The notes beneath the pieces were generated by a model. The model worked only from the letters and a program-made list of their open reading frames with translations. It searched no databases and was not told where the DNA came from. The position numbers and the translations under genes were made by a program. Positions 1 through 18,262 of a stretch of DNA of 64,000 bases are shown piece by piece. Where the stretch lies: positions 1 to 64,000 of the IMG/VR virus record IMGVR_UViG_3300040801_001819, one strand, 5' to 3'. The number at the start of each line of letters is the position of its first letter. Position 1 is the first letter of the stretch. This DNA comes from a virus.

Positions 1-3000
1 ATAAGATTCTATGTTTCTAGACCCTATTCCTGCATAATTAGGAGTAAGAGTTGGAGTAGGTATTTCTACCCATTTACCATCCATGGCCTTATACCATTTT
101 TTAGATTTAAGATCCCATAAGTGTACAGGTTTATTCATTTTTTGCGCAAGTGTAACAGCAGTATTAGTTCCACCATAAACAGCGGCGTTAAATAAATCTG
201 TATCCATCTCTGCAATAGCAAATACACTATCAGAATTAGCTACTTGATAATAGTTTCTAACTTGTAGATTACCTTTTAAGTCATCTGCATATTTTATACC
301 AGTAAGTCTTTCAACCTCTTTTCTAGCAAGATCCATCTCTTCTTTAGAAAGAACAGTAGCAGAAGATGTTTTTTTAATCCCAGATGCAACTCTTGCATTA
401 TTAGCATCTTTATAGTGTTTATGATTTACAACACCAAATTCTCTACCTATTTGATCCCAAAATGAATCAGCACCATAAGCTCCACCTGAATGATTTGTAA
501 AATTAGAAGGATTTATTTCAGAAACAGCTTTATCTATGTTTACCTCTGTATATTGTAATCCAGTTTCAAGGTCAACATTAGCAATAACAATTTCACCAGA
601 TTCTTGATCAATCATATCGTATCTATCACCTGAATTTTTAACCCAAATATGATTATCAGGCATATTATCTCTGCCTTCAGTCTTTCCATTTGTAAATTCA
701 GAAAATAAAGTATAAAAAGTAAAGAATTCATTAGGCAACTTTCCTTGTGAAGATGCTATATATTTCTTAAAAGAAGCTATATCTTCATCAAATATAATCT
801 TTTTTGAAACTTCTCGAACATTCTCACTTGGAGTATTTTCTTGAACACTCACACCTGTTCTTTCTTCAACAAATCCAGGATCAGATCTAAGTTGTTTCAT
901 TATATCTCTAATCTCACCCTTAATCTTAGTAGGAACATTATTTCCTTCAACAACAGACTTAGTAGGAGCTTCTTTTTCATTATATTCGAAGATACTACCT
1001 TTACTAGATTTGTGTCCAAGCTTATGTGTACGAGTATATACAGGATTTCCATTAACTTCTCCTCTTAATATGAATAAACCATAATTTGGAATAGCACCTT
1101 TATCATATACTTCTTTTTGATTAAGCATTACTTTTGTAAATTTAGGGAATGTTTTATTACCCATAAAATCTACATCAACTGCAACAGAATATTTTTCTTC
1201 GTCACTGATAAATCCAGTTCCAAGACTAAATAAACTTCCGAAACCTTTTATTTTATCAGCTCTAAGCTCAGGAACTAATTTAGAACCCAATGTTTTATTA
1301 TCCCATTGATGTCTTAGCATTTGATCTTTAAAGTCTTCACCTGCAACCATATTGTCAACAGTTCTAAACATCTCATCAATCTCAAATGCAATACCTTGTT
1401 CTGCAAAGAAATTATGTGGGATATGTGAAAAGAATTGATTTAAATTATTATTAAATCCAGATTGTGAGTACGCGTATCTTATTAAATCTAGTCCAAGCTT
1501 TCTTTCGGCCGGATCAGAAGAATTAAGTAGTTGAGACCACGCTCTGTATATTCTATTGTTAAAACTTTTTGTAGCTGTTCTAGAATCTATTCCTAAAAAT
1601 TCGTATCCACCTGAAGTCTCTATTCTAAATTCTTGAATTAAGAAATTATCACTAGTTTCCTTAAGCGCAGAAATTTGTTCTGGTAAAACTTTAAATAAAT
1701 AATCATGATCTGAGTTGTTATCTTTAAAGACAGACAATCCAGACATAGAATAAGATCTAAAAGAATTTTCTAACACTCTTCCTAATTCAGGATCAGTTAA
1801 TAATCCTTTTCCCAAAGCTTCAGATACGCTGTCAAAAGCATGCAATACTTCTTGCTTACCAGCCAAGAATAAATCACTAGCTTGTAATACATCGCTAACC
1901 CATAACACTCCATTATGATAGTAATGACCCATCATGGTAGATGTAGCATGTGCATCAGTAAACCCTTTAGAAGCATATCCTAATATTTTCTTAGCATTAA
2001 GAACAGCATTCACTTTATTTTTAGCAATATGTAAAGGTAGAACTCCACCTCCATTACCTTTGGTATCAGCTTTAGCAGCAGAGACACTGGCGTTGAAAGC
2101 TCGTGCATGATCTTGAAAGAATTCAAATATATCCAGGATCTTGCCTTGTTCAATTTTCTCTTCAGTAGTAAGGGCGCCTTCTTTTTTAATTGCAGCCTCC
2201 ATATTAGATGGGTTTAAAGCAGCAACATCAGCTTCAGTAGCATCACCTTTCTTAACACCATATTGTAATCTAATATACTCCATTGGAGTTACAGTTTTGC
2301 CTGAGTCTCCAAAAGTTAATCTTCTTGCAGTTTTACCATCTGACATATTTATAACATCAACTAAATCTTTAAGAATAGGTTGACCTATAAATCTGTTAAC
2401 CCATGATACAGGAGCTCCTGCTCGTAATAACATAAATGTAATACCTGCTGTATGAACATTGTGGTTGCCACGAGAAATATAAGGATCTTTTGCAATATCA
2501 ACATACGCGTTTAAGAATGCAGATAGTACATCACTAATGCTATTCTTACCATCTGTGTCTGTAAGGTTATCAAACTTTGTATTACCTTTAGAGTCTTTAT
2601 GTCCAATACCTAAGTATCCGTTAAGCGTAATGTTTAAACTTTGGTTACTTACATGGTCCACTAACTGGTTTGCAGTCTGTGCCACACCGAACTTACCAGA
2701 CAAGTATTCAAACTTAGTCTTAATTTGTTGTATAGGGCTCATAAACTGTAAACTTCCTAACTCTTGTGGAGGAAATAAACCAATAATATCATTCTTTAAG
2801 AAACCAGCGTCAATTGATGTCATCATTTGGTCGTAAGTGTGAGGACTTGTAAGAACACTAGTATATAAATCTACTAGCATATTTTGCTTACCTTTTTTAG
2901 AGTCCATGTTACTTGGTACCTTTTGGATTTTTCCATCTCTCACTTCAAGGTGATGCGTCATAACATACATCTTGTCTATATCAAAGTCACTACCAGTCTT

Positions 3001-6000
3001 ACCAGGTACAGCATCGTAAGCAATAATACTATCTCCTAACTCAGGAGGAAGTATACCAACAATCTCTAACGGATCATTAGAAGACATCCCTTGGTTAGGT
3101 ATTCTATACGCAACCATTTGTAGTGCACTAGGATCTAAAATTTCCTTAAGCTTAGCAGCTGACATGTTCCATGGATTTATTCTCTGTGGATCATTCTCAT
3201 CTTTAAATTGTTTGTTATATTTATCAATAGTGCTTCTTATTGCACTATATGGTAACATTGCTTGACCAGGTAAAACTTTTCCAGTCTTTTTATCAATACG
3301 TGGTGGCTTTAATCCTTTTGGATCATAGTTATCAGATACTATTTTGATACCGGATCTAAGAATTTTAGTTGGGCCAGTATTTACACCCAATTCTTTTTGA
3401 GCAAGATTTAATCCTTCTAAAAAAGCTTTATCAATTAACTGATTTGTGTTGTGAGTAAATTCTTTATATTTAACTAATTTTTTAGCAGATTCAGAATTAC
3501 GATTTTGTTTAAAACTTTCTACAACTAGCGTTTTCATCAATCCTAAACTATCTGCATCCTTCATTTCAGCAATTGTTCCTTTTCCTCTTATTTTTTTTCC
3601 ATAACCTCCTATTTTATTATAAGCATCGTAAGTTTCTTTATCAAAATCTCCTGATTTGTTAGATTGATATGCATGCTCAACACTGCCGTATTCTTTACCT
3701 TTATATGTAAATCTTCTTTCTGCTAAATTAGATAAAACTTTTGTAGATTTACTTGATTCAGCTTGACCGTAATAAACATTTATAGTTCCTTCTGGAGCAT
3801 CTTCTTTTACTATTTCTTTTACAGACTCTAATCCAAAAGGAGAAACTTGAATAAAACTACCACCATTGGTTTTAACTTTAATAAGTTCTTTATTAAAAAT
3901 AGACATAAAGATACTTTGTACTCTTCCTGCTAATTGAGGAATAGCATCAAATGGCATCTCTTTTTCTAAGGCTGAAATAATATTTTCATCTCCACCTCTT
4001 GATTTAAATTCGTCAATAAGAGCCTCATAGACTGCCGTCATATTAGTAATCTTATTATCTTCTCCTATTCCGAACTTAGCACCAAGTGCTTCTCTTCCCT
4101 CTCCAACTAGTGATCCAATAGTATCATGAATCATTTGCATGATTTCTCTACCAGTTTTAGGTTCGCCATTAAGTTCATAGTTAGCTAATTTAGAAGATAA
4201 GTCAATACCAGCTAATATGTTCTTTTGGATTTGAGATCCAGTAAGAGTATCATGAATAAGCTTTGTAGGTAGATCTTGTTGTAACTTCCAGCCTGAATTA
4301 ATTAAAGGAGTTGAATTTAATTCAAATTCTGCTAATAACTCACCGTCTTTAGTGTGAATATCTGTTATTCCTTTTGCTCCAACTTTTACGCCGTCTCGAG
4401 TAATAACTTCATGAAGTTCATCTTTTTTATTAACATATGGCTCACCTGTTGCAGGATCTATTGTCATCTTATCGTATAGAGCTTGCATTGGAGTGTTTTT
4501 AACTAAACTAGGAACTAATACAGCCTGTGAATATTTTAAATATACAGGACGTCCGTTATTAATTTCGAAATATACACCTTTCAATGATTGAGCAGCAAGC
4601 TTAAGTTCTTTAGGCCCTAGCTCTTTGCCATCTATCATTTTCTTGAATACTTTCTCATGCTGAGCACCCCATTGGCCTAATCTCTCTTTAAGAAACTTCC
4701 ATCTATAAGGAGTTATCCATGCTTGAGCATCAGTGGTATTTATTCCTCCATTCACACCAGGTATTTTGTCATAAACTAAAGCTATACTTGCATTAGCTTG
4801 ACTTAGTCCATAATATTTAGAAGGGTAATTTACATCAGTGCCTGGAATTACAGATCCTTTTTTTATAATAGGATCTCCTTTTTTATTTCTTATTTTTAAA
4901 GAATTAATTATTTCATCTAAAAACTTAGAGGCAACCTCAACACCATTAACTGTTGCTTGATTAAAATACTTGTGATCATTCTCACTAAGTCTTAATTGTA
5001 ATCCATCAGTATATGTTGCAGGAATACGCTTAATTAAATCACTTTGATTTTTGTAGTAAGCAGGATCACCAGAAAATAACTTAGTATATTCAATAGTAGA
5101 AATAAGTCCATTAACCACATAATCACCAACCATTGTATGTACTGGTGAACTTTGAGATTCATATGAAGCCATTAAAGATTTATCAATAGTAAGGGCCTTT
5201 AATCCACCCTTTTCTTTTGGATCAACTTCTATAATTTTATTTTTTCTTAACTCCTGAAGAGTTTCTTTCATTCTATCCTTGATAGCTTGTACAACAAATG
5301 GTCTTAAAGCCTCTTTCTGAGTATTAGATAATCCAGAAATTGTAGATTTTTTAGGACGGTTATTATCATATAAGATAGCTCTAACTTCCTTAGAAGCTTC
5401 AGCAGGTGAGAATTCTGGAAACAATTGAGACTTAAGCGCATTCATACTCTTAGTATGATAGTGCTCTATCTTTTTTGAATCAGGAAGATTATCTATTTGA
5501 TCAGCTGCTTCAGCCATCCTGTTATATTCATCTTCAAAGTAGCCTATAAATATATCAGATGTAGCATCATCAACCTCTGTTCCTTTACCATTAGTATATA
5601 CTATACCTGTTTCAAACATTTCGAAACCTGCAAGATCCATTTTACGGGATTTATCAGCCGGAACAATAGTAGGAAATAATGACTTTTGGGCAGAAGCTTT
5701 CTTACCAAGAATTTTTACCATACTATCATTAATAGCATCAGCAATTGTTATATTAGTATTATCAACACCGTCATTTTTATTTTTGGATTTCATAGAGCTC
5801 GACAAGCCTATTTGAACATCCTGAATTCTTTCTAATGATTTAGCTTCGCGTTCACTATCATTAACAATGTCAGCAGCTAGTAAGTATTTTAACCATCTAG
5901 AATTCTTGTTATAAGTTAAGCTAGCTAAAGCTTGTATATCCATAGTATCATCTACTCCAGCTTGCTGTTTCCAGGAATTAAGCTTGTTATGTAAATAACT

Positions 6001-7677
6001 TAATGAAGAATAGGTCCAATATGTCTTACCTTCATTACCAACAATTGTATTCTCAGATAATTGAATAGCACTCAATCCTCTTGCAGTAGCTAATCTACCT
6101 AATACTAATTGATCATCAAATGGATTTTTAAATTCACCAGCTACAACAAATGGAGCTTTATCATCTTTTATGATAGCCATGGTTCTTTCCATACCTTCAT
6201 ATAAAGCTTTTACTTCACCATATCTTTTTTCCGGATCACTAACCTGAAGAATGAAGTTACGCATATCAAGGTTATTAACGTTGATACCAAGCACATTCAT
6301 TGCTCCCATTAAAATAGGAAGATTCTCACTAATACTTTTAATTTTAGACGCTAATGTTCCTCTTGTTCCTACTTGACCAATAAATTTTTTCTTTGACTCA
6401 GTAATCATGTCAGATATTTGTTCAATATCGACAGCTTTATTCATCTTACCCTTGCTGGTTAAGAATTTCTTTCTAAAATTACGGCCCCATTCAGCTTTAA
6501 GCTTACTAGATCTCGAGTTTGTAGAAGAAGCATTGATTACTTTTATATTACGACCGTTAACTTCAGTTACATAATAATCAAGTTGAGCTTTAGAGAAAGC
6601 TTGAAAAAATTCTGTAATTTTATTTCTTTCACTAATCTTCTCTGAAGTATTTAATTCTTTTAGTCTGTCTACTAATCCTTCTGTCCATGGCTTAACTAGT
6701 TTTAAGCCCTCAAGCTTCTCAACCATTAAGTCAAATACATCCTGAACATCTCCTCCTAAGTTAAAGTTAACTAAGTCAGATAGCATTGGCTCCAATGTAG
6801 TCCATACGTCATCAAATTCAACAAACTGTGGTTTACCTAAAAACCTACCAGGAACAGTAGAAATAACCATTTCATTTTTACCGTTCTCATTTACATATGG
6901 AGTTCCGTCAGGATTTTTCCTAAGCTCTCTTTTAGTATCTAATACAGTGGATAATAGTAACTTTACATTTACAGACGCAGTGTCTTTAGAATTCTTTGTA
7001 AAGCTTTCAGCGAAATTCATTCCAGTGGATTTGTCTTCTTCAGCCATTTCCACTTCTGGATTTCCATTCTCATCAGTTAAGTCAACAATTTGATCCTTTC
7101 TAGCACCTGCTTTAATACGCTTGCTTGATGTAAGACCCATGTCTTCAATTTGATTCCTTACCTCAATAACAAAATCATCTTTATATTTTTCAATAAGATC
7201 TGCACGCATTTGTGCATCAGGATCTCCTACATTTTCAGCTCTATAAGCATCAATGCTAGATTGAATAGACTCAGATATCTTTAGACCTTTTATATTCTCA
7301 ATGTTATTAAAATCAAATCCTTCCTTAGTTGAGAACAACTCATATCTAAGTTGATTAGTGATTTCAAATACGTCGTCTGGATCTATTTCTGGAAACTTAA
7401 TCTTGTTTAAGAAGTCTTTCTTGCCATTCTTAAGTTTATAGTAGAATTGGTTACCAGATTTAAATAATCTAGGATAACCATTATCATCTTGCCTTAATGC
7501 ACCTTGTTTGTCAGTCCATTTAGCATCTTTATTATTTTCCCAATCGCCGAATACTTGTTTGAATGAATCAGAAGCAATTCTTCGTGCTTCTGCATTAGCT
7601 AGTTCTTGAGTTCCCAAAATGGTAACTAGCTTTTCCTCAAACTTCATGGCGCCTATACAATTCGAATTCTTTCCCAT
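1..7677 (-). CDS. giant virion-packaged RNA polymerase (crAss-like vRNAP); N-terminus complete, C-terminus runs off the window; at least 2559 aa
   Basis: Absent from the ORF track because there is no stop inside the window. My manual minus-strand translation from ATG 7677 (or in-frame ATG 7647) is stop-free to nt 1 (7677 = 3 x 2559). The track lists no minus-strand ORF fragments in 1-7700. It has the RNAP beta-prime-like metal motif GSDFDIDKM (nt 2974-2988), preceded by AYRIPNQGMSS. It lies downstream of the ejection-protein block, as in crAss-like phages. Confidence 0.85.
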   Translation of the reverse strand, partial: MGKNSNCIGAMKFEEKLVTILGTQELANAEARRIASDSFKQVFGDWENNKDAKWTDKQGALRQDDNGYPRLFKSGNQFYYKLKNGKKDFLNKIKFPEIDPDDVFEITNQLRYELFSTKEGFDFNNIENIKGLKISESIQSSIDAYRAENVGDPDAQMRADLIEKYKDDFVIEVRNQIEDMGLTSSKRIKAGARKDQIVDLTDENGNPEVEMAEEDKSTGMNFAESFTKNSKDTASVNVKLLLSTVLDTKRELRKNPDGTPYVNENGKNEMVISTVPGRFLGKPQFVEFDDVWTTLEPMLSDLVNFNLGGDVQDVFDLMVEKLEGLKLVKPWTEGLVDRLKELNTSEKISERNKITEFFQAFSKAQLDYYVTEVNGRNIKVINASSTNSRSSKLKAEWGRNFRKKFLTSKGKMNKAVDIEQISDMITESKKKFIGQVGTRGTLASKIKSISENLPILMGAMNVLGINVNNLDMRNFILQVSDPEKRYGEVKALYEGMERTMAIIKDDKAPFVVAGEFKNPFDDQLVLGRLATARGLSAIQLSENTIVGNEGKTYWTYSSLSYLHNKLNSWKQQAGVDDTMDIQALASLTYNKNSRWLKYLLAADIVNDSEREAKSLERIQDVQIGLSSSMKSKNKNDGVDNTNITIADAINDSMVKILGKKASAQKSLFPTIVPADKSRKMDLAGFEMFETGIVYTNGKGTEVDDATSDIFIGYFEDEYNRMAEAADQIDNLPDSKKIEHYHTKSMNALKSQLFPEFSPAEASKEVRAILYDNNRPKKSTISGLSNTQKEALRPFVVQAIKDRMKETLQELRKNKIIEVDPKEKGGLKALTIDKSLMASYESQSSPVHTMVGDYVVNGLISTIEYTKLFSGDPAYYKNQSDLIKRIPATYTDGLQLRLSENDHKYFNQATVNGVEVASKFLDEIINSLKIRNKKGDPIIKKGSVIPGTDVNYPSKYYGLSQANASIALVYDKIPGVNGGINTTDAQAWITPYRWKFLKERLGQWGAQHEKVFKKMIDGKELGPKELKLAAQSLKGVYFEINNGRPVYLKYSQAVLVPSLVKNTPMQALYDKMTIDPATGEPYVNKKDELHEVITRDGVKVGAKGITDIHTKDGELLAEFELNSTPLINSGWKLQQDLPTKLIHDTLTGSQIQKNILAGIDLSSKLANYELNGEPKTGREIMQMIHDTIGSLVGEGREALGAKFGIGEDNKITNMTAVYEALIDEFKSRGGDENIISALEKEMPFDAIPQLAGRVQSIFMSIFNKELIKVKTNGGSFIQVSPFGLESVKEIVKEDAPEGTINVYYGQAESSKSTKVLSNLAERRFTYKGKEYGSVEHAYQSNKSGDFDKETYDAYNKIGGYGKKIRGKGTIAEMKDADSLGLMKTLVVESFKQNRNSESAKKLVKYKEFTHNTNQLIDKAFLEGLNLAQKELGVNTGPTKILRSGIKIVSDNYDPKGLKPPRIDKKTGKVLPGQAMLPYSAIRSTIDKYNKQFKDENDPQRINPWNMSAAKLKEILDPSALQMVAYRIPNQGMSSNDPLEIVGILPPELGDSIIAYDAVPGKTGSDFDIDKMYVMTHHLEVRDGKIQKVPSNMDSKKGKQNMLVDLYTSVLTSPHTYDQMMTSIDAGFLKNDIIGLFPPQELGSLQFMSPIQQIKTKFEYLSGKFGVAQTANQLVDHVSNQSLNITLNGYLGIGHKDSKGNTKFDNLTDTDGKNSISDVLSAFLNAYVDIAKDPYISRGNHNVHTAGITFMLLRAGAPVSWVNRFIGQPILKDLVDVINMSDGKTARRLTFGDSGKTVTPMEYIRLQYGVKKGDATEADVAALNPSNMEAAIKKEGALTTEEKIEQGKILDIFEFFQDHARAFNASVSAAKADTKGNGGGVLPLHIAKNKVNAVLNAKKILGYASKGFTDAHATSTMMGHYYHNGVLWVSDVLQASDLFLAGKQEVLHAFDSVSEALGKGLLTDPELGRVLENSFRSYSMSGLSVFKDNNSDHDYLFKVLPEQISALKETSDNFLIQEFRIETSGGYEFLGIDSRTATKSFNNRIYRAWSQLLNSSDPAERKLGLDLIRYAYSQSGFNNNLNQFFSHIPHNFFAEQGIAFEIDEMFRTVDNMVAGEDFKDQMLRHQWDNKTLGSKLVPELRADKIKGFGSLFSLGTGFISDEEKYSVAVDVDFMGNKTFPKFTKVMLNQKEVYDKGAIPNYGLFILRGEVNGNPVYTRTHKLGHKSSKGSIFEYNEKEAPTKSVVEGNNVPTKIKGEIRDIMKQLRSDPGFVEERTGVSVQENTPSENVREVSKKIIFDEDIASFKKYIASSQGKLPNEFFTFYTLFSEFTNGKTEGRDNMPDNHIWVKNSGDRYDMIDQESGEIVIANVDLETGLQYTEVNIDKAVSEINPSNFTNHSGGAYGADSFWDQIGREFGVVNHKHYKDANNARVASGIKKTSSATVLSKEEMDLARKEVERLTGIKYADDLKGNLQVRNYYQVANSDSVFAIAEMDTDLFNAAVYGGTNTAVTLAQKMNKPVHLWDLKSKKWYKAMDGKWVEIPTPTLTPNYAGIGSRNIESY

Positions 7678-7702
7678 TTGCTTTATAGCGTTTTAAAATT
7701 TA

Positions 7703-10700
7703 TTATATTATACAATCCCAGTCTCCCTGTTCTTCAGTTTTAATTACATTAGGATCTATTTCTTTTGTTTTTTGTTTCTTATCAATCTTTTCAGCATCTT
7801 TTGCTTCTTCAGAAGATTCTACTTCTACATTCTTATTAGCTTTTAGTTCTCTTTGTGCCATTTTGTTTCTAGCTTTAACTTCTTCTGAATCATTTAAATC
7901 TACAAGAATTTCATTTATTTCAGAAGTCTTATCTGTAAATATAGCGTTTTCTCTCATAGAAAGCAAATTATTTTCAGCAATTTTTTTAGCAATCTTATTT
8001 AATTGCATTTTAGATATATCACCTTTATCAACAAACTTTTTCCAAATACCATCAGAAATAGTTTCATTTAAAGAATCTTCAACAGTAATATTACCTAAAG
8101 CAGCTAATTCTGCATCGTATTTAGCATTGATTTTATCTTTTATAAATTGATCTACTTCTCCTAAATTTAAACCTTTTGGATTATAAATTTCCCCTTTTGT
8201 ATAATTATAAGGAGAATACTTTTTATCTTTAAACTCAGCTTTATTATGTATCTCTATTCTATTAAACTCTTGTAATTCTTTTTGTCTTCTTCTTTCTATA
8301 TCAGCTTTTTGTGCATCTATTGATTTACTTGATGGATCTATTGTTGTTTTTTGAATAGGAACTTCCTTAATAACAGTAGATGCTTTTTGAGCAGGTTGAG
8401 CTAATCTTTCAGCATCATATCTTTCTTTTATTAGCTTACGAACCATGTCAGCATTTTTACCGTATACTGGAATTCTTTTTCTATTTTTATCAAAGAATAC
8501 GCCGGCAAAGCCTTTCTCTCTTTCATCAACAACACCAGCATTATCAGAAGCTGCTTGTCTAGAATCAATATCTTTGTTAGCCTTAGTTGCTTCCTTAGGG
8601 CTCACTTCAGTAACTTCAGGAGTATCTTCAGGCACAGCAAATCCTATATCAAACTTAAATGGAGGTAATCCATTATCACGGCCAAGAGTTTTATTCTCAT
8701 TAAATAATGGCTTCTCAGTACCAACAACAGCGTCAGTAGACATTACGCCATTAGTCATCATTTCTCTATATTTAGGACCTATTACAGCATCATTCCATTG
8801 TTTAAGATTAAGTTGACGTCTCTTGAAATCTTGTATAAACCCAATAAGAGCATCTCTATTATCACCTACATTCTTAGGTGTAACAATAGCTTTAACATCT
8901 GTACCATAATGGATCCATTCACCTGTTAGGTGTAAATGAGTTTCTTTACCAGCTGTTTCAGCCGTCATGTGTACAAACAATTTAGCCACATCCATTGTTT
9001 TAGCATCTTTACCTAATACAGCAAATTCAGAAGGATGATCTTCTTTAAATCTTTTAAATAACTCAGGATGTTCACTTAATCTAGCCTCTTTACCAAGCTT
9101 CTTGGTAATAACAGCTATAAGTAAGTCTGCAACAAATGTAGCTTCTACTGTTGTTGGGCGTCTTAGGTTAAGCTTTAAAGGAAATGGATCTCCATTAGCC
9201 TTAGGAACATTTAAAAATACACCACCTTTGTAAGGTACTGGATTTCCTTTGTCATCTTGTGTTCTTAATACATCTATTTGTAATCCTTCAAAGTCAGGAT
9301 GATCTGTTTTATCACTAGCCTTAACTAAAGTGCCATTCTCATTAGTAACCATTAAGTCTACTTTACCCATATTACCATCAATAAATGGGAAATCCATTAT
9401 ATTGTTTTCAGGCACAGTGTTATCCTCAGTTTCTTCAACATGTAAGTTTCCTCCAAATTGATAAGTAACTTGAGTTTTAGTGTTTCCTTTAAACATCTGT
9501 CTAATAATAGCCTCTCTTTTTGGCAATTCATTAGTTTTAAAGAATGTATTTGATGGAGAGAATGCAGGTATATATGACCAAATCTCTTCAGTAAGCTGAA
9601 TCTTTATAGGAAGATGATTAAATAAAATATCTTTTTCCTCAGATGTAAGCTTATTTTTAGGATTAGCCTTAGCTCTGTTGTAAATATTAATTGCCTGTTG
9701 GGCTAATTGCAAATATTTTCCACTAGGATCACCTATCACAAAATCTAAAAGGACTGGTTTGCCATCCTTCATTCCAGTTTTGTCCTTACCATTAAACACC
9801 CAGTCTTTCCAACCAGGACCATTAAGATTAGCATACATAGGAACCTTTATGTTCTTATACGCTTTAGTGTTAATAGCTCTATCTTGTGACTTCTCTTTGC
9901 TTTTAGTAATCTTAGAGACAGTAGTTTGCTCCTCAGCGAACTCATCTTCTACGTTATCATTAACCTTAGCGTTGTTAGCATTGGTTATAGTCTTAGTATC
10001 TTTCTTAGCTTCATTAACGGCAGCTAACTTCTCAGCTTCTCTAGCCTCATCGTTCTTATATTCTTGAGCAAGAGCAGCCTCATTAGCTAATTCCTCTATA
10101 TTCTCATTAACAGTAGCAAGTTCAGCAGCTTTTTCATCTTTAGTTAAGAATGGAGCATTTTCAATTTCCTTCTTAATAGCTTCACCTTGCTCTTCATTCT
10201 CTATTTTAGAGTTGATCTTTTCTTTTAAAGCTTCTTTTTTAAGACCATTTCTATAACTTTCACTGCGAATAGCGTCATTCTCTAATTGATTAAGCATTAT
10301 CTCTGCGTTATTACGCTCCTTAACCATATTAGCTTGAACAAGCTCATTAGTGATATCTTCTGTAAAACCTTGAGCTATCCTAGAATCTTCCCTTTTTTTG
10401 TCAGCATCTCTTGGATCATCTTTGTTTTCAGCATCATATTGTTTAGTTAGTTTAGATATTCTAGCCTCATTTTCTTTTATGATTTTTTCAATATGTGGTT
10501 TTCTTAACTCACTTACTTTACCTGATTTAAGTTGATCTTTGAATGCTTGATTCATTTCAGCTAAAGCTCTTAACTTAATTACTCCTTCAACTTTATTAAG
10601 TTGAGTTGTAGACATAGCATTAATATTCGGAATAGAATAAGTAGTAGATTGGATTTTTTCATCCATCTTCTTTGAGTTCTCAACAAATCTTTTAGTTCTG

Positions 10701-12412
10701 TAATTATTCTGGGCCATTTTAGCCGCAATATTACCTTCGTATTTATTAGAGAACTTCAAATAATCTAATCTCATCTCTTCAGACTTTTTGATTACTTCAG
10801 GAATACTCTTTTTAGCTAATTCTAGATTAAATTCACCACCACCTTGTTCTTGTAAAGCTTTAGCTTCTTCTTTAGTCATATTAGCAATACCTTGAAGAGC
10901 TTCAATATGCTGATCAAATTTACCACGATTCAATGCATCAGTAGTCATCATCAACATCATTTCATCTAATACCATCTCTCTGGCTTCAATGTTATCGTTG
11001 TTGTCAGCATCAGATAGCCTTTGTTGCATAGACATAAAGTTCTTAGCACGATCATTAAGTGTAGCTCTATAAGTCTCTTCGTAATTGCTTTCGAATTCTC
11101 TTCTTTTCTTTCCTTTTCCGAGCTCATTTAAGCCCTTACCTGCCATTTGAAATAAATTACCACCTAATCCACCAAAGAATGCAGATGTCATCATCTCGTC
11201 AGAGCCAATGGCGTCAGACATGATCTCATTATACTTATCTCTTGTGATTAATCCAGCATTTAGGTCAGCAAGTGCCTTACCTTGTTCAGCAATATAATAT
11301 TGATAAGATTCTTCAGCACCTTCAGATAAGAATGTACCAATTCCACCACCAACTTTTTGTTGCCATGGTTTTAATTTTAATTGTTTACCTTTTTGAGAAG
11401 CTTTAGATAAGGCATTCTCCATTCTTCCAGTATGAGGATTGAAGATTTTACCTAATGCTAAGTATTGTGGTATATCTTGAAGTAACATAGCCCAACCTTT
11501 ATTGTAGTTAGAAGCAGCGGCCTCAGAGGCTAACTTAGTTGCTTCTTCTTCAGTAAATGGTAAGCCTGTTTCTTTATTTGTTCTTTTTAAGTAATCAGCT
11601 TTTGCACTTTCGAATGTGCCACTAGCTTCCATAGAATTTTCTATATGTCTAGATACGATAGCTTGAGAAATACCTTCTGTCATCCATGTAGCTTGTTTAC
11701 CCATGTTTCCAGCAACATCAAGTATACGCGAAAACTTACCACCAAGCTTAGAAGCTCCTCTACCTAAGAAGCCTAATGCTTTAGTAGCAGCCATAGAAGG
11801 AATAAGCATGCTTAGTGTAGAAGCTACACTAACACCATTACTAAACCACCATCCTGGATCTCCCGGATCAAATTTACCAGGATTCTCAGTATAAATAGCC
11901 ATTTTATCTTGACTCCATGTTCTAAGACCTTTACCAGCTTCAGTCATGAAGTTACCCCAGTCTTTTTCGTCACCAGTCATATAATCCAGTGCACTACCAA
12001 GATCTAAGATATAACCTAAACCTTCAGTAGTACCAGCTACAATTTGACCAACAACAGCTTGACCAAGCATATTACCTGCTTGCTCCCAACCGGATTGATT
12101 CATAGCGCGTTGTTTATTTAAAGCGTCAACACCACCAGTAGGCATAAATATGCTAGATCCAAGATAGTCTGTATAATCTTCGATGTCTAATCCTTTATAC
12201 ATTTTATCTTGAACAACCTGTGGTCCTCCACCACCAAACTTAGCTTTACCTTTATTTGGATCTTCAGCAGGAACATCTTCATCACTACCACCAAACTTAG
12301 CCTTAGGTTTTGACTTTTCGTCAGTCTTAGGCTCAGTATTCATTAGTGTTTCATCTGTGGATGGATTCTCTACAATGCTTAAGTCTAAAGCTTCATTATT
12401 CTCCTGTACCAT
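7703..12412 (-). CDS. large virion ejection/cargo-like protein (1569 aa)
   Basis: Track ORF located between the tail genes and vRNAP. It has a duplicated KAKFGG motif at the N-terminus and a long charged coiled-coil-like centre. Function is inferred from size and position only. Confidence 0.5.
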   Translation of the reverse strand: MVQENNEALDLSIVENPSTDETLMNTEPKTDEKSKPKAKFGGSDEDVPAEDPNKGKAKFGGGGPQVVQDKMYKGLDIEDYTDYLGSSIFMPTGGVDALNKQRAMNQSGWEQAGNMLGQAVVGQIVAGTTEGLGYILDLGSALDYMTGDEKDWGNFMTEAGKGLRTWSQDKMAIYTENPGKFDPGDPGWWFSNGVSVASTLSMLIPSMAATKALGFLGRGASKLGGKFSRILDVAGNMGKQATWMTEGISQAIVSRHIENSMEASGTFESAKADYLKRTNKETGLPFTEEEATKLASEAAASNYNKGWAMLLQDIPQYLALGKIFNPHTGRMENALSKASQKGKQLKLKPWQQKVGGGIGTFLSEGAEESYQYYIAEQGKALADLNAGLITRDKYNEIMSDAIGSDEMMTSAFFGGLGGNLFQMAGKGLNELGKGKKRREFESNYEETYRATLNDRAKNFMSMQQRLSDADNNDNIEAREMVLDEMMLMMTTDALNRGKFDQHIEALQGIANMTKEEAKALQEQGGGEFNLELAKKSIPEVIKKSEEMRLDYLKFSNKYEGNIAAKMAQNNYRTKRFVENSKKMDEKIQSTTYSIPNINAMSTTQLNKVEGVIKLRALAEMNQAFKDQLKSGKVSELRKPHIEKIIKENEARISKLTKQYDAENKDDPRDADKKREDSRIAQGFTEDITNELVQANMVKERNNAEIMLNQLENDAIRSESYRNGLKKEALKEKINSKIENEEQGEAIKKEIENAPFLTKDEKAAELATVNENIEELANEAALAQEYKNDEAREAEKLAAVNEAKKDTKTITNANNAKVNDNVEDEFAEEQTTVSKITKSKEKSQDRAINTKAYKNIKVPMYANLNGPGWKDWVFNGKDKTGMKDGKPVLLDFVIGDPSGKYLQLAQQAINIYNRAKANPKNKLTSEEKDILFNHLPIKIQLTEEIWSYIPAFSPSNTFFKTNELPKREAIIRQMFKGNTKTQVTYQFGGNLHVEETEDNTVPENNIMDFPFIDGNMGKVDLMVTNENGTLVKASDKTDHPDFEGLQIDVLRTQDDKGNPVPYKGGVFLNVPKANGDPFPLKLNLRRPTTVEATFVADLLIAVITKKLGKEARLSEHPELFKRFKEDHPSEFAVLGKDAKTMDVAKLFVHMTAETAGKETHLHLTGEWIHYGTDVKAIVTPKNVGDNRDALIGFIQDFKRRQLNLKQWNDAVIGPKYREMMTNGVMSTDAVVGTEKPLFNENKTLGRDNGLPPFKFDIGFAVPEDTPEVTEVSPKEATKANKDIDSRQAASDNAGVVDEREKGFAGVFFDKNRKRIPVYGKNADMVRKLIKERYDAERLAQPAQKASTVIKEVPIQKTTIDPSSKSIDAQKADIERRRQKELQEFNRIEIHNKAEFKDKKYSPYNYTKGEIYNPKGLNLGEVDQFIKDKINAKYDAELAALGNITVEDSLNETISDGIWKKFVDKGDISKMQLNKIAKKIAENNLLSMRENAIFTDKTSEINEILVDLNDSEEVKARNKMAQRELKANKNVEVESSEEAKDAEKIDKKQKTKEIDPNVIKTEEQGDWDCII

Positions 12413-14853: not shown

Positions 14854-16352
14854 CTTGTTTTTTTCTTTTTTTTCTTGCCGTTAATATACTTGCCAGTAGC
14901 GTCAAAGTCCATTCCCATTAGCTCTGGGTATTTTTTGAATAACTGTTCTTTTCCTATTTCTCCAAGGTTGGATCCTAATTGAGAAATCAATTGACTCTTC
15001 TGAATATCATAAGCGCCTTGATTTTGTTCATTAGCTAACTTCTCTGCATTTGATTGTTGTAAATTAGTTTGATCAACACCTAAGTTAAACTGTTGTCCAG
15101 TTCTATTATCTTGTCTATTAGCCTCGCCAGCTGATTGCATAGCGCTAGATAAAGCTTTTGTTCCCTGAAGACTTAATCCCAATAAGTTAGCTCGAGCAGC
15201 TGCTCCAGAACCACCAGATGATCCTAATATAGCATCTCTATTACTACTGATTCCTTCTTGAACACCTTGAACCAAACTTCTTTCATCTACTTGTTGTGAT
15301 TGATACTTGTTCCCAAGTCTACCTCTTGATACTTCATCAGGCTTCTTAAGAGTAGCCAATTGATAAGCATCAGTAACAGCAGGCGCATATCTAAGTAATG
15401 TTGATGGATCATATTTAGATTGAAGATCTTCTCCTTCTCCTTCTCCTTCTTCGTCTTCTTCGTCTTCTTCTTCTTCTTCTTCTTCTTCTTGTTGTTGTTG
15501 TTGTTGTTGTTGTTGTTTTAACCAATCACCTATCTGATTGTTTTCTTGTATTTGTTCAATTATTGCTTGTTCATCTAAACTAGCATCATCAAGACCCATA
15601 GCCTTGAATTTAGCATCATTAGAATTAGCTTGCGCATTAACACCTGCGCTATATGGATTTACACCAGGAGTATGATAATCTGCGCTAGTTCCTGTCATTT
15701 GAGGAATTTGAAGAGTTTGTATCATTTTGATTAATTCATTAGGATCTATATTATTCATAAATCCTCCACCGAAATATTTATTATTATATTGTCTAGCTTG
15801 AGTAGCAGTATTATTTACCTCCATATCTAGTGCCTTTTTTTCAGCAGCACCATTCCCTATGAAACTTCCTGCTATATCAAGAATTGGAGAAGCTATTGCG
15901 CCTACACCAGGTATCATACTAGCAGCTCCACTCGCGGCACTCATAATTCCTTTAGCAGCATTACCTTCTTTAAAATGACTAATAGCTTCTGGAGCTTTAG
16001 CTAGAGCTCCTAGTCCAGGTATTGCAGACGATGCTGCTCCACCTAATAAACCTGCTGCTCCTCCTGCACCACCTAGAATACTCATTATTCCTCCTAAGAA
16101 GTGATCATTAGTAGGCCCCATTGCAGGACCTTGTGGTTGTGGTTGCTCAGTTGGCTGAGATTGCTTTTTAATGTACTCTTGTGCTTGCTGTAATCTTCCT
16201 TGCAAATCCTGAAGAGTATCAACAGATTCTTTATCTGTTCTGCCCTCAAATTTCTTAGCAATGAGTTTACTAGCTTCAGCAAAAGTTTTACCTTTTGTAT
16301 ACGAAGGTAAATTGAACATATCCATTATGCTATTGCTTTCTTTCTTTTTCAT
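14850..16352 (-). CDS. Gly/Ala-rich ejection-block protein with polyQ-polyE tract and C-terminal K6
   Basis: Track ORF. The N-terminal third is a hydrophobic G/A-rich segment (GGAGGAAGLLGGAASSAIPGLGAL...). It contains Q8 followed by an E/D run. Confidence 0.55.
   Translation of the reverse strand: MKKKESNSIMDMFNLPSYTKGKTFAEASKLIAKKFEGRTDKESVDTLQDLQGRLQQAQEYIKKQSQPTEQPQPQGPAMGPTNDHFLGGIMSILGGAGGAAGLLGGAASSAIPGLGALAKAPEAISHFKEGNAAKGIMSAASGAASMIPGVGAIASPILDIAGSFIGNGAAEKKALDMEVNNTATQARQYNNKYFGGGFMNNIDPNELIKMIQTLQIPQMTGTSADYHTPGVNPYSAGVNAQANSNDAKFKAMGLDDASLDEQAIIEQIQENNQIGDWLKQQQQQQQQQEEEEEEEEDEEDEEGEGEGEDLQSKYDPSTLLRYAPAVTDAYQLATLKKPDEVSRGRLGNKYQSQQVDERSLVQGVQEGISSNRDAILGSSGGSGAAARANLLGLSLQGTKALSSAMQSAGEANRQDNRTGQQFNLGVDQTNLQQSNAEKLANEQNQGAYDIQKSQLISQLGSNLGEIGKEQLFKKYPELMGMDFDATGKYINGKKKKKKTR
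15428..15517. repeat. in-frame trinucleotide microsatellite: CTT/CTC run followed by (GTT)9
   Basis: Read directly: cttcttcttcttcttcttcttctt then gtt x9. It encodes the polyE/polyQ tract of the 500-aa protein on the minus strand. Confidence 0.9.
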
Positions 16353-18262
16353 TATGCTATTCTATATTCGTCCATTGTAGGTTTTGTATCTACTTTGGCA
16401 ATTGTGTTTAATGCTTCTACTACTTTACTATCATCGAAAACTCTAATAAAGTTTTCATTTGTAAGACCTTTTGCTTTTATTCTTTTATTTAGTTCTTTTT
16501 CATCAATTTGCTCACCAGGTTTTAATCCTAGTTTTTCTCTGAATTCTACAAAGTTACCATATGCTTCATGTGGCTTCTTAAGGTAACGAACAGTTTCGGG
16601 AGAATGCTTTTTCATGAAGCTTCTAGTTTCCTGTTGGAAAGGATTACCTAATATCTTCATTAAGTTTTCTCCCTGAGCTGCATCAAATAAACTAGCATGA
16701 ACTCTTTCATGGGTCTCAACACCTGATGTACCATCAAATTCAGAACCAATATTAATTTTATTTTTTGATGCATCATAAGATGCTTTAGATCCAGGAACTT
16801 CTCCGCCAATTTCTTTCTTAACGTTAAGTCCTTTTAGTATCATGTTATCTATATCCTCAGGTTTTAATCCAGCTTGCTCAGCTAATTTTTGTCTTGACCA
16901 TGGATTGTTATATCTGTTTAGAAACTCTAGCGCATTCTTATCATTAATAGCTAAGTCAAAGTTAACCTTATCACTCTTCTGGGTAGTGACATAATTATCT
17001 ATCATATAGTCCTCTCTAACATCAGGAACTTTAAATGTCTCGTCAACTTTTACTAATCCTCCATATGGAGTTGTCTGATATTCACTCTTAGTGAACTCTA
17101 AATCTTTTTCAGCAGGAATAGGTCCAAATACCGGATCAATAACAGGATTAGCATTCTTCTTGGACTCCTTTTTCTTTGGATCTGTTAAGTCTCCTCCGTC
17201 AGCAAATGTATTTTCTTTTGTTCCTAATTGAGTAATTGGCCCACCAAGTGATAATCTATTTGAAAAAACGTAATCCCCAAATTTAACTTCACCTTCTTCA
17301 ACAGTGTTCATCTTGCCATTAGTGCCAATACCCATAGGTACGCCACCATAAGGATTCTCTTCATGTGTACCACCATTCTCAATAGGTATGATATCTTGAG
17401 CATCATGTTGATTTAAGAAACCTCCCATTGCAAGAGTGTTTAATAAACCTAAATGCTCATCCATTGGTTTGCCTGCAAGCTCACCTGATACATGTAATAT
17501 TTTTTTAGGATCCTCTGCTAATACAGTACCTTCACCTGGTTGTGAACCAGTTTGTGTCGGAGCTTCTGTCGGAGCTTCATCTGTATTTTCAACTGCTTCA
17601 ATAGTACCTTGAGCTTCAACAGGAGCTTTATCATATAACTCTCCGCTATTGAGATAGTCTATATACTCTCTTCCTGAGTTTTGAAAATCAAATTTCTGCT
17701 CTTTAATAACTTTAGGAGCAACAGCTGTCTTGTCTTGAACTTTTACATTTAATCCTGCTTCAGCAGGAGCATTTTTATATGTTTCTATACTTTTAACAGT
17801 TTCGTCTGGAACAAAAGCTTTTCTAAATTTGTTTATATATTGTAATACGCTTGCATTCTTACCTGGAACAACAAATCCATCAGGATTAGATAGGTACTTT
17901 CTAGCACCACCCTTACCTAAGAAATGTGTTAGTGCAGCAATATCATGTAATCCTAACTCTGTTTTGTACTTACTTTTTAGTTCTTTCGCGTATTCTTTAT
18001 ACGAAGGAAATCCAGGAAGAGTACCATCTATGGCCATATCCATTACTTGCTCTTGAAGCTCAGGCCTGTTAATAAACTCACGTTTAGTTACGCCGCGCAA
18101 TAAAGGAATGTCCTGAATATATCTATACAAGAAATGATACTTACCGGCGGCAGAACTAGTTGAATTTTCTAGAAACTTACCTCCACTAGATTCAACATGA
18201 GCAATAGCCTTCTTAAAGGCTTCTCTATCAAAATCTTTCTTTATATTCTTCTTATCCGACAT
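16352..18262 (-). CDS. virion-associated lytic transglycosylase (N-terminal) + zincin HExxH metallopeptidase-like (C-terminal) fusion protein
   Basis: The N-terminus reads AIAHVESSGG...SSAAGKYHFL, which is SLT-like (catalytic E-S, then an A-G-x-x motif). The C-terminus reads GVETHERVHAS, an HExxH motif at nt 16697-16711. Confidence 0.65.
   Translation of the reverse strand: MSDKKNIKKDFDREAFKKAIAHVESSGGKFLENSTSSAAGKYHFLYRYIQDIPLLRGVTKREFINRPELQEQVMDMAIDGTLPGFPSYKEYAKELKSKYKTELGLHDIAALTHFLGKGGARKYLSNPDGFVVPGKNASVLQYINKFRKAFVPDETVKSIETYKNAPAEAGLNVKVQDKTAVAPKVIKEQKFDFQNSGREYIDYLNSGELYDKAPVEAQGTIEAVENTDEAPTEAPTQTGSQPGEGTVLAEDPKKILHVSGELAGKPMDEHLGLLNTLAMGGFLNQHDAQDIIPIENGGTHEENPYGGVPMGIGTNGKMNTVEEGEVKFGDYVFSNRLSLGGPITQLGTKENTFADGGDLTDPKKKESKKNANPVIDPVFGPIPAEKDLEFTKSEYQTTPYGGLVKVDETFKVPDVREDYMIDNYVTTQKSDKVNFDLAINDKNALEFLNRYNNPWSRQKLAEQAGLKPEDIDNMILKGLNVKKEIGGEVPGSKASYDASKNKINIGSEFDGTSGVETHERVHASLFDAAQGENLMKILGNPFQQETRSFMKKHSPETVRYLKKPHEAYGNFVEFREKLGLKPGEQIDEKELNKRIKAKGLTNENFIRVFDDSKVVEALNTIAKVDTKPTMDEYRIA

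Follow-up and report, generated by a model that had tools for sequence, protein, structure and literature searches.

A crAss-like virion RNA polymerase encoded in the 64,000-nucleotide stretch of viral DNA analyzed here (IMG/VR record IMGVR_UViG_3300040801_001819, positions 1 to 64,000; hereafter the window) carries a divergent NADAR domain inserted in a surface loop next to its catalytic barrel. NADARs are ADP-ribosyl N-glycohydrolases. We propose, with a probability of roughly 60%, that the ejected polymerase carries this domain as a cassette which would remove ADP-ribose from nucleic acids on arrival and so counter DarT1-like or other ADP-ribosyltransferase (ART) defenses.

A divergent NADAR domain in a phage polymerase

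The domain core, supported by an AlphaFold2 (AF2) model, Foldseek, and hhalign, spans amino acids 1295-1431 of the polymerase (window 3385..3795, minus strand), in agreement with a preliminary description of this DNA that had placed a NADAR-like module at 3385-3785. Both peptides quoted there are present in the open reading frame 1..7677, INVYYGQAESSKSTKVLSNLAERRFTYKGKEYGSVEHAYQSNKSGDF from amino acid 1299 and SFKQNRNSESAKKLVKYKEFTH running to amino acid 1409. Taken as a single sequence, the module scores 15.2-15.8 bits (E 0.017-0.027) against PF08719 (NADAR, DUF1768, YbiA-like), where the gathering cut-off is 35.1, and 12.9-13.5 bits against PF08010 (Phage_30_3), where it is 36 bits. Neither phmmer with the module nor hmmsearch with its family profile found anything among PDB sequences, and tblastn of the module returned one weak match only, in Bacillus phage AgentSmith. 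The comparison with PF08719 that the preliminary description had suggested as a check falls short for the window sequence itself. A comparison between profiles succeeds: hhalign of the module profile A2 against an alignment of the annotated or characterized NADARs YbiA, PnNADAR, T4 AdfN, and the DUF1768 region of cr126_1 gives a probability of 97.6% and an E value of 3.3e-12.

Intermediate sequences lead to the same superfamily. Twelve of 13 close family members have Pfam matches solely to NADAR (best E 1e-5) or Phage_30_3 (best E 3.2e-4), and ten second-tier homologs likewise match nothing else in Pfam. The second-tier homolog P0119 bridges the two levels directly, since it matches profile A2 at 7e-24, passes the PF08719 cut-off (36.1 vs 35.1 bits), and has 8BAU and 2B3W as its top two PDB matches.

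The AF2 model of the module (pLDDT 90.8, pTM 0.87), with 6 helices and 4 short strands, has the fold of the NADAR superfamily. Searched against the PDB with Foldseek, its only specific matches are 2B3W (E. coli YbiA) and 8BAU (P. nicotianae NADAR), at probabilities of 0.98 and 0.91, a TMq of 0.56, and an E value of only 0.039. Against BFVD, about 40 viral proteins are recovered, mostly annotated as NADAR, and the top matches, nearly all with this annotation, reach a probability of 1.00 with TMq 0.53-0.67 and E 9e-4 at best. Although these structural matches are modest (TM about 0.56-0.67, RMSD 4-6 A), profile and structure evidence are both significant, and the objection anticipated in the preliminary description, that no NADAR profile or structure match would appear, does not hold. 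We conclude that the inserted core is a divergent NADAR domain and that the resemblance goes beyond chance.

The residues expected of a NADAR active site can be followed through an alignment of 159 module copies. An LSNL motif at amino acids 1315-1318 (3724..3735, minus strand), the equivalent of NADAR [LF]SNF, aligns with the FSNF of YbiA and the LSNF of T4 AdfN, its S and N being invariant in 151/151 domain copies. Glu1334 within SVEHAYQ (3676..3678, minus strand), the predicted catalytic Glu, is present in 153/153 copies and corresponds to E43 of PnNADAR, E88 of E. coli C7, and E36 of AdfN, while Lys1341 (3655..3657, minus strand), seven residues past it, is present in 153/156 and corresponds to K50, K95, and K43 of the same three proteins. 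The module thus has the full NADAR motif of [LF]SN[FL], S/T-x-E-h-x-[FY]-Q with its Glu, and, seven positions further on, a Lys, with the spacing of T4 AdfN (L to E 19, E to K 7). Roles of this Glu and Lys in NADAR active sites have been described (PMC11543638, PMC11257639), and E36 and K43 of T4 AdfN are required for function (PMC11257639).

The third active-site acid is replaced in phage fashion by His1409 in EFTHNT (3451..3453, minus strand; 148/150 copies), at the end of the last strand (model residues 110-114). This supplies the polar residue, Glu, Asp, or His, found on the last strand of NADARs, although the register is ambiguous by one, such that either Thr1408 or His1409 could align with the YbiA Glu. 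Phage NADARs carry histidine at this position (PMC11543638, PMC11125620; also PMC11257639), and the FTH of the module corresponds to the LKH of T4 AdfN, in which His likewise stands in for the last-strand Glu. In having this His the module resembles the phage AdfN/gp30.3 type, yet the subfamily to which it belongs is a distinct and divergent one. It stays below the PF08010 cut-off, and we do not file it under the AdfN/gp30.3 clade; nor is it a standalone protein. The subfamily of the module has at least 629 cluster representatives, and most of the 150 matches listed sit inside giant phage proteins. The segment is a complete NADAR-superfamily domain and probably an active one.

Insertion into a virion RNA polymerase

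The protein that hosts the module is a gp66-type virion RNA polymerase, in line with the crAss-type polymerase named in the preliminary description, and it is encoded among crassvirus genes for structural and cargo proteins. Its gene (1..7677, minus strand) translates as one uninterrupted frame, 2559 codons long, which is cut off by the window start, leaving 2559 amino acids visible with the C-terminus beyond. A phmmer search against the PDB recovers 6VR4 (phi14:2 gp66) at E 3.2e-215, with gp66 homology in four collinear stretches covering amino acids 12-2153 and including both barrel regions, and the catalytic DFDID motif at amino acids 1564-1568 (2974..2988, minus strand) corresponds to gp66 residues 1361-1365 (bioRxiv 10.1101/2020.03.07.982082). 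Directly upstream lies the gene of a gp67-like virion protein (7703..12412, minus strand; blastp with phi14:2 gp67, E 1e-17), and farther on a homolog of crassvirus cargo protein 1 (16352..18262, minus strand; Pfam PF25725 crAss_CARG1, E 2.8e-21, 76.4 bits vs a cut-off of 27) marks a block of genes for ejected proteins. Crassvirus terminase, portal, and major capsid genes are present in the window by PHROG matches, and the polymerase gene follows the gp67-like gene within the cargo and transcription part of a crassvirus structural module. At the nucleotide level, megablast of window positions 1-8000 against 50,697 GenBank phages gave no match.

Packaging in the virion and translocation into the cell have been demonstrated for phi14:2 gp66 (bioRxiv 10.1101/2020.03.07.982082), and the RNAP proteins of crAss001 are capsid cargo (PMC10172136). 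By homology to these, the polymerase of the window would also be packaged and translocated.

In a pairwise MAFFT alignment, 161 residues of the window polymerase (amino acids 1284-1444; 3346..3828, minus strand) stand in place of gp66 residues 1246-1253, a 7-residue loop. The insertion consists of an N-terminal linker (ESVKEIVKEDA), the NADAR core, and a C-terminal linker (VNTGPTKILRSGI), and it is flanked by the conserved stretches KTNGGSFIQ.S.FGL (window 3847-3873) and LKPP.I (window 3295-3312). Placed against the domain limits of gp66 (Connector 1095-1238, DFDID 1361-1365; bioRxiv 10.1101/2020.03.07.982082), the module is an accessory cassette in a surface loop of the polymerase, between the Connector and the second, DFDID-bearing double-psi barrel. 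It starts about 265 amino acids before DFDID and ends 132 before it, so the earlier figure of 230 amino acids upstream is correct only as an approximation. The GC content of the insert (29.6%) shows no clear difference from that of the gene (33.1%), and no flanking direct repeats were seen on inspection of the insert.

Cassette-like distribution of the module

The module is absent from phi14:2 gp66 and from 11/11 junction-spanning relatives of the polymerase scaffold. The closest relative found (L008) has a polymerase 83-95% identical to that of the window and lacks exactly the NADAR module, with a 23-amino acid loop at the site. The segment is accordingly an insertion and not a general element of crAss virion polymerases devoid of active-site residues, which the preliminary description had named as the finding that would count against it, and the existence of near-identical polymerases without the module shows that the scaffold does not need it. 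At the same polymerase junction, another relative (L009) has a PIF1/UvrD-like helicase.

Where the module does occur, its position varies. Of 29 DFDxD-bearing proteins that contain the module, 23 have it C-terminal of the polymerase, 4 have it far upstream, and 2 have it at the window site. Individual loci have it at the C-terminus of gp66 (L010), on a gp67-like protein, again at the C-terminus (L011), as a standalone protein adjoining polymerase genes (L001, L003), or adjoining a SLOG-like region (L002). L002 and L003 contain many short co-directional gene calls, with frame changes inside the NADAR match, a pattern that resembles frameshift errors, and these two loci were therefore used only for gene order. 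For L001 we rejected the idea that the short homologs are pieces of polymerase genes that have been recoded or split, since its gene ends in a real TAA with the ATG of the next gene directly after it. Together, the varied positions (N-terminus, C-terminus, gp67-like protein, standalone), the absence from L008, and the helicase of L009 identify the module as a cassette that is accessory to the set of ejected proteins.

Module identity reaches 50-78% between proteins whose polymerase scaffolds are just 21-38% identical, and this excess of module over scaffold identity we count as an apparent sign of selection on the module. A search of 185,579 species genomes located the subfamily in only 2, both times on phage-like contigs binned into MAGs, and these offer no bacterial operon context from which a substrate could be inferred.

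A second accessory module, a DprA/SLOG-like domain, lies near the visible C-terminal end of the polymerase (amino acids 2386-2537; 67..522, minus strand). It matches phrog_768 ('DprA-like') at E 2.4e-10, with a weak match to Pfam cpYpsA SLOG (0.0071-0.16); its model has a pLDDT of 82.5 and only generic Rossmann-like Foldseek matches in the PDB (TM <0.4), and its profile found nothing among PDB sequences. Homology to the L008 polymerase stops at amino acid 2387, i.e., L008 is also without this domain, which adjoins the NADAR module in six other proteins (P0024, P0076, P0096, P0113, P0136, and P0145). The two domains probably belong to the same NAD/ADP-ribose counter-defense package.

Proposed function and alternatives

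If the window polymerase, like other gp66-type polymerases, is packed in the virion and enters the cell with the DNA, then its NADAR domain would reach the cytoplasm before any phage gene is expressed. There, it may remove ADP-ribose from guanine (or other) bases of the incoming phage DNA, of early transcripts, or of both, and DarT1-like or other ADP-ribosyltransferase defenses could be neutralized as a result. AdfN performs de-ADP-ribosylation in vitro (PMC11257639), and RNA carrying guanosine-ADPr is also a NADAR substrate (PMC11833690). In one study, T4 gp30.3 gave E. coli no protection from DarT1 (PMC11125620), which implies that the substrate range of NADARs is context-dependent. Because the polymerase partly unfolds for ejection (PMC10172136), the domain must refold to act.

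The same domain, delivered the same way, might instead act together with the SLOG-like domain on a soluble NAD or ADP-ribose derivative, a signaling or toxic compound made by TIR, sirtuin, or ART-type defenses, and we regard this as possible though doubtful. Iyer et al. make the case that soluble ADPr derivatives, and not DNA adducts, are what most NADAR, SLOG, Macro, and Nudix domains of phages target, and they point to recurrent SLOG and NADAR combinations (PMC9503650); here, the NADAR module and the DprA/SLOG-like domain share one protein, are jointly missing from L008, and have adjoining counterparts in L002 as well as in the six proteins named above. Yet every NADAR that has been tested experimentally, those from three unrelated clades of phages included, has base-linked ADP-ribose in DNA or RNA as its substrate (PMC11543638, PMC11257639, PMC11833690), activity on a defense signal is not reported in these papers or in the other NADAR literature consulted, and the SLOG assignment itself is weak. 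It is improbable that the module is an antidote paired with a phage-borne toxin, in which case the phage would co-inject an ADP-ribosyltransferase and the NADAR would shield phage nucleic acids or limit the toxin. NADARs do serve as antitoxins of DarT1 and YarT (PMC11543638, PMC11125620), and among the modifying enzymes of virion-delivered polyvalent proteins ARTs are the most common (PMC9503650, citing PMC5512222); however, the four large proteins encoded upstream showed neither an ART nor any other Pfam domain, and no ART was detected in the visible 2559 amino acids of the polymerase.

The location of the module in the catalytic core, near the DFDID barrel, invites the thought that it is a catalytically dead NADAR fold co-opted by the polymerase to bind nucleic acids, for regulation, or as a spacer for packaging or ejection, all the more as a self-inhibited state and accessory domains without an explanation are described for gp66 (bioRxiv 10.1101/2020.03.07.982082) and a non-enzymatic phage NADAR has been alluded to (PMC11257639). 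Such a role appears hardly likely for a module in which Glu, Lys, His, and other pocket residues are near-invariant over 159 copies in very different contexts, which is also found outside the polymerase, either on gp67-like proteins or standing alone, and without which 83-95% identical polymerases work. Activity on riboflavin-pathway intermediates, noted for the YbiA family (PMC11125620, PMC9503650), would agree with E. coli YbiA being the top PDB fold match, but a metabolic N-glycosidase of this type is very improbable indeed for an ejected phage protein in which the YbiA-defining last-strand Glu is replaced (Thr-His), and whose subfamily has so little presence in cellular genomes, the two contigs concerned being phage-like.

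Our preferred reading, removal of ADP-ribose from nucleic acids by a NADAR delivered with the polymerase, could be part of a wider arrangement, which we put forward as speculation and consider rather unlikely as a whole. The crassvirus ejected proteins (gp67-, gp66-, and gp65-like) might form a modular delivery chassis whose permissive loops and termini accept interchangeable counter-defense cassettes (NADAR, DprA/SLOG-like, SF1 helicase), swapped between near-identical phages; disulfides between terminal Cys residues might link the carriers head to tail in the virion until they are freed in the reducing cytoplasm, and the NADAR in the polymerase core might clear template DNA or nascent RNA of ADP-ribose at the onset of early transcription. 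As a separate observation belonging to this idea, the gp67-, gp66-, and gp65-like carriers are purged of cysteine, each exception being a single Cys at a terminus.

If the domain is active, a de-ADP-ribosylating enzyme would come in with the phage DNA, and ADP-ribosylation of incoming nucleic acids, or NAD-derived signals, could be countered before phage gene expression, a timing advantage over standalone NADARs which, like T4 AdfN, are synthesized after entry. Presence and absence of the module among polymerases 83-95% identical, together with the helicase of L009, provides natural, isogenic-like pairs for testing. The loop beside the catalytic barrel of this two-barrel RNAP tolerates inserts of 140-500 residues, which is useful for engineering, and the work defines a large, mostly unannotated NADAR subfamily that Pfam thresholds miss.

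Relation to known systems

Among the closest precedents are the phage NADARs T4 AdfN/gp30.3, Bas32, and Bas60, which counter DarTG1 (PMC11257639, PMC11125620). The module has in common with them the phage NADAR fold, LSN[FL], the same Glu/Lys spacing, a His where cellular NADARs have Glu or Asp, and a presumed counter-defense role. These proteins are small and standalone, whereas the module resides inside a virion-delivered polymerase of at least 2559 amino acids encoded in a structural gene block, and its sequence similarity to T4 AdfN/gp30.3 is very low (13 bits with Phage_30_3, no BLAST-level matches). Viral NADARs were described as typically standalone in a 2022 survey, and several T4-like phages express such genes early after entry (PMC9503650); standalone relatives of the module itself exist in other phages.

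The DarT1-NADAR (DarG1) antitoxins of the BC4488 family (PMC11543638) share the fold and the Glu/Lys pair with the module and likely also its chemistry, hydrolysis of guanine-N2-ADP-ribose. Their third residue is Asp and their genes lie beside DarT1, in contrast to the His and the phage structural gene context of the module, and neither the polymerase nor the four upstream proteins showed an ART domain.

With respect to delivery, the closest parallels are the polyvalent or virion-packaged NAD-ADPr effectors (PMC5512222, PMC9503650) and T4 Alt, enzymes that are packed in the virion and injected and so act before phage gene expression. Polyvalent effector proteins are multi-domain giant carriers like the window polymerase, while T4 Alt is a transferase and not a hydrolase. 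The 2017 paper on polyvalent proteins (PMC5512222) does not mention NADAR, SLOG, DPBB, or a crAss polymerase; NADAR proteins have been proposed to be packaged in virions (PMC9503650).

Within crassviruses, phi14:2 gp66 (6VR4) shares with the window polymerase the whole-length scaffold, the DFDID motif, and the gene order gp67-gp66-gp65, but it has 7 residues in the loop where the window has 161, and no DprA/SLOG-like domain. In our literature search, no paper connected NADAR with crAss-like phages or discussed the fusion in the window or in cr126_1 (Kolpuevirus hominis). The cr126_1 protein YP_010111697.1, a RefSeq 'DUF1768 domain-containing protein', is nevertheless a gp66 ortholog (blastp E 1.5e-30, DFDxD at residue 1509), and as it also has a NADAR domain, a crassvirus NADAR-polymerase fusion is already in RefSeq. 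Together with the anti-DarTG1 phage NADARs (PMC11257639) and the proposal of virion packaging (PMC9503650), this entry precedes the idea of an injected counter-defense cargo fused to a polymerase, the novelty of which the preliminary description had overestimated. The enzyme family, the anti-defense role in phages, and the fusion of NADAR with the polymerase are thus on record, and what is new is the internal insertion site: the NADAR of cr126_1 is N-terminal (about amino acids 52-203) and of the second-tier 'LTHxQD..W' type, whereas that of the window is internal, at the junction of the Connector and the DFDID barrel.

The polymerase and its inserted domain

Window positions 1..7677 (minus strand) form a single open frame of 2559 codons that continues past the window start, and in a phmmer search of the PDB its one strong match is 6VR4, the virion RNA polymerase gp66 of Cellulophaga phage phi14:2 (E 3.2e-215), with similarity in four collinear stretches (query 12-931, 978-1285, 1452-1581, and 1593-2153). 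gp66 is packaged in the virion and translocated with the DNA for early-gene transcription (bioRxiv 10.1101/2020.03.07.982082), and the RNAP proteins of crAss001 are capsid cargo (PMC10172136). A gp67-like gene lies directly upstream of the polymerase gene, and the ORF at 16352-18262 matches the Pfam crassvirus cargo protein 1 domain; together with terminase, portal, and major head protein, these make up a crassvirus structural block in the rest of the window. Because of the gp66 match and this cargo-block context, the preliminary description of the gene as an injected vRNAP is sound by homology. The window polymerase is missing gp66 residues 1379-1456 (78 residues) just after the DFDID motif (window ~2930-2975, minus strand) and has several insertions of 12-19 residues at other places relative to gp66. 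A phage-encoded GroEL-like chaperonin (50585-52147, minus strand; phrog_5725, E 1.3e-146) could be relevant to the folding of giant proteins.

The peptides originally quoted for a NADAR-like module are all present in this frame (INVYYGQ from aa 1299, SVEHAYQ from 1332, KEFTHNT from 1405, and the polymerase motif DFDID from 1564), and the interval 3385-3785 first proposed corresponds to the domain core, aa 1295-1431 (window 3385-3795). The module alone scores 15.2-15.8 bits on Pfam NADAR, below the cut-off of 35.1, and 13 bits on Phage_30_3, and the NADAR assignment is borne out by its family and its predicted fold. A search of 1.84 billion representatives with a profile of 13 family sequences yields 629 proteins at E<=1e-3, of which 329 reach E<=1e-10. 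Ten standalone second-tier matches hit NADAR or Phage_30_3 only, and one of these ten, P0119, passes the Pfam NADAR cut-off with 36.1 bits and has as its two best PDB matches 8BAU (P. nicotianae NADAR, PnNADAR) and 2B3W (E. coli YbiA). Comparison by hhalign of the family alignment with an alignment of YbiA, PnNADAR, T4 AdfN, and the DUF1768 domain of crassvirus cr126_1 gives 97.6% probability (E 3.3e-12). The AlphaFold model of the module (pLDDT 90.8, pTM 0.87) specifically matches only YbiA and PnNADAR in the PDB (probability 0.98 and 0.91; TMq 0.56), all remaining matches having TM below 0.3, and its top ~40 matches in BFVD are viral proteins, nearly all of them annotated as NADAR (probability 1.00, TMq 0.53-0.67), with large proteins of crAss-like phages cr131_1 and cr130_1 among the BFVD matches. 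Profile comparison and predicted structure together identify the module as a NADAR domain.

Glu43 and Lys50 of PnNADAR are essential and correspond to E88/K95 of E. coli C7 and E36/K43 of T4 AdfN, while the third position, in the last strand, is occupied by Glu in YbiA; NADARs linked to DarT1 have Asp there, and those of phages have His (PMC11543638, PMC11125620, PMC11257639). In the module we find LSNL (1315-1318), E1334, K1341, and H1409, with L-to-E and E-to-K spacings of 19 and 7, identical to those of AdfN. The 157 representatives contain 159 copies of the domain, among which the Glu is kept in 153/153, the Lys in 153/156, the His in 148/150, and the SN pair in 151/151. Judged by this conservation, the catalytic signature is intact, with the register of His1409 against the YbiA Glu uncertain by one residue: a gapless alignment places the His there, and hhalign and MAFFT place Thr1408.

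An accessory cassette at a variable loop

In pairwise alignment with gp66, window aa 1284-1444 stand in place of a 7-residue loop (gp66 1246-1253) between the well-conserved flanks KTNGGSFIQ.S.FGL and LKPP.I. Since the published limits of gp66 place the Connector at 1095-1238 and DFDID at 1361-1365 (bioRxiv 10.1101/2020.03.07.982082), the aligned insertion site is the junction of the Connector and the second double-psi barrel. The module, which had been described as cargo fused to the polymerase, is not general to crAss vRNAPs: it is absent from gp66 and from all 25 relatives returned by a search in which the two scaffold flanks were spliced together without the insert; the 11 of these that cover the junction have only about 8-15 residues at that point. 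The closest relative (L008, a 70-kb JGI contig) encodes a polymerase 83-95% identical that lacks exactly the module, reading ESVQEIVKDDSGKDPNKVLRSGI at the loop where the window has ESVKEIVKEDAPEG, the NADAR domain, and then VNTGPTKILRSGI; the polymerase therefore has no need of the module. At the same loop L009, whose polymerase flanks are 58% identical to the window's, carries a ~500-aa PIF1/AAA_30/UvrD_C-type SF1 helicase (7011-8516) and no NADAR. Because the loop holds NADAR in the window, a helicase in L009, and neither in L008, these alignments mark it as a hotspot for accessory inserts. The carrier is a gp66-type virion polymerase, and the module is an accessory insertion in it.

Of the 157 module-bearing proteins, 41 fall below 350 aa and 92 exceed 1000 aa. 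An exact DFD[IV]D motif is present in 29 of them; here the module lies downstream of the motif in 23, far upstream in 4, and at the site seen in the window in 2 (P0039 and P0047). Elsewhere it is C-terminal on a gp66-like protein (L010) or a gp67-like protein (L011), adjoins a SLOG-like region (L002), or is a separate small gene near polymerase genes (L001, L003). The module is 50-78% identical where the polymerase parts of the same proteins are only 21-38% identical, a contrast that would be expected if selection acts on the enzyme cassette in its own right as it moves among the ejected proteins. The subfamily occurs at only two loci among 185,579 species genomes and, because both are phage-like contigs in metagenome-assembled genomes (MAGs), is essentially viral. 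L010 (CAZNER010000035.1), binned as a Saccharibacteria MAG, encodes gp66/gp65-like crassvirus proteins, and L011 (NZ_JBNMNU010000001.1, 100 kb), binned as a Clostridium sp. MAG, encodes a gp67-like one; both are probably mis-binned phage contigs. The sole BLAST-level relative of the window module in 50,697 GenBank phage records is in Bacillus phage vB_BspM_AgentSmith (MW749006.1, 46259-46774), a 200-kb myovirus, within a "putative toprim domain-containing protein"; this match is 49% identical to second-tier member P0134.

Terminal cysteines of the ejected proteins

Module-bearing proteins are nearly cysteine-free (0.077% Cys), with medians of 1 Cys and 1559 aa per protein, yet in 80/157 a Cys lies among the final six residues, where 0.5% is expected per protein. 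In the 2559 residues of the window vRNAP the only Cys is Cys7 (7657-7659), and in the 1569 residues of its gp67-like neighbor it is Cys1567, third from the C-terminus (7712-7714); three neighboring cargo-block proteins contain no Cys. Of the phi14:2 proteins, gp67 ends in its only Cys, gp65 has just one, at residue 3, and gp66 has two, at residues 3 and 2179 of 2180. The same terminal pattern is seen in cr126_1, cr131_1, L010, and L011, and near-Cys-free ejected proteins with lone Cys residues at one or both termini are found at loci L005 (phi14:2), L006 (cr126_1), L007, L010, and L011. Disulfides are known in crAss001 tails, with none described in cargo proteins. This distribution suggests that the ejected proteins may be joined head to tail by disulfides, or that there may be a conserved signal for processing or packaging; either would explain it. 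The papers we consulted do not describe the pattern, and it is possibly more novel than the NADAR insertion itself.

What the domain may do on entry

The NADAR domain probably enters the cell together with the polymerase and would there strip ADP-ribose from the bases in phage DNA, early RNA, or both. This favored reading has precedents: DarTG1 is overcome by AdfN and by two further, unrelated NADARs from phages (PMC11257639), and on RNA, guanosine ADP-ribosylation is undone by NADARs (PMC11833690). The occurrence of the module on gp67-like proteins as well makes a role tied strictly to transcription less likely than a general one of arriving early.

The main rival, which we consider less likely, is that the module degrades soluble ADPr-derived signals jointly with a DprA/SLOG-like domain close to where the polymerase ORF leaves the window (aa 2386-2537, within window 1-522, minus strand). 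That domain matches phrog_768 (E 2.4e-10) and, weakly, Pfam cpYpsA; a fold search gave no clear assignment. In favor of joint action, it too is missing from L008, which runs on into a zincin (HEFAH) gp65-like region, and it adjoins the NADAR module in six other proteins; Iyer et al. also prefer a soluble-ADPr reading for phage NADAR and SLOG domains (PMC9503650). It is followed by an AGIGSR motif (region aa 2386-2559) that, by motif resemblance, might mark the beginning of another such domain past the window edge.

Relation to known systems

Our literature search found no paper on NADAR in crassviruses, and the 2017 polyvalent-protein paper does not mention it. In the human-gut crassvirus cr126_1 (NC_055884), the gp66 orthologue YP_010111697.1 (11848-19056) is labeled "DUF1768 domain-containing protein" in RefSeq; it is a gp66-type catalytic vRNAP with an N-terminal NADAR, and the label hides the polymerase. 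Anti-DarT phage NADAR enzymes are already published (PMC11257639), and for NADAR, Macro, Nudix, and ART proteins there is a published proposal that they are packaged in virions (PMC9503650). To these the window and its relatives add an internal insertion site in the catalytic core of the polymerase, cassette presence and absence between near-identical polymerases, an alternative helicase insert at the same junction, and the size of a divergent NADAR subfamily.
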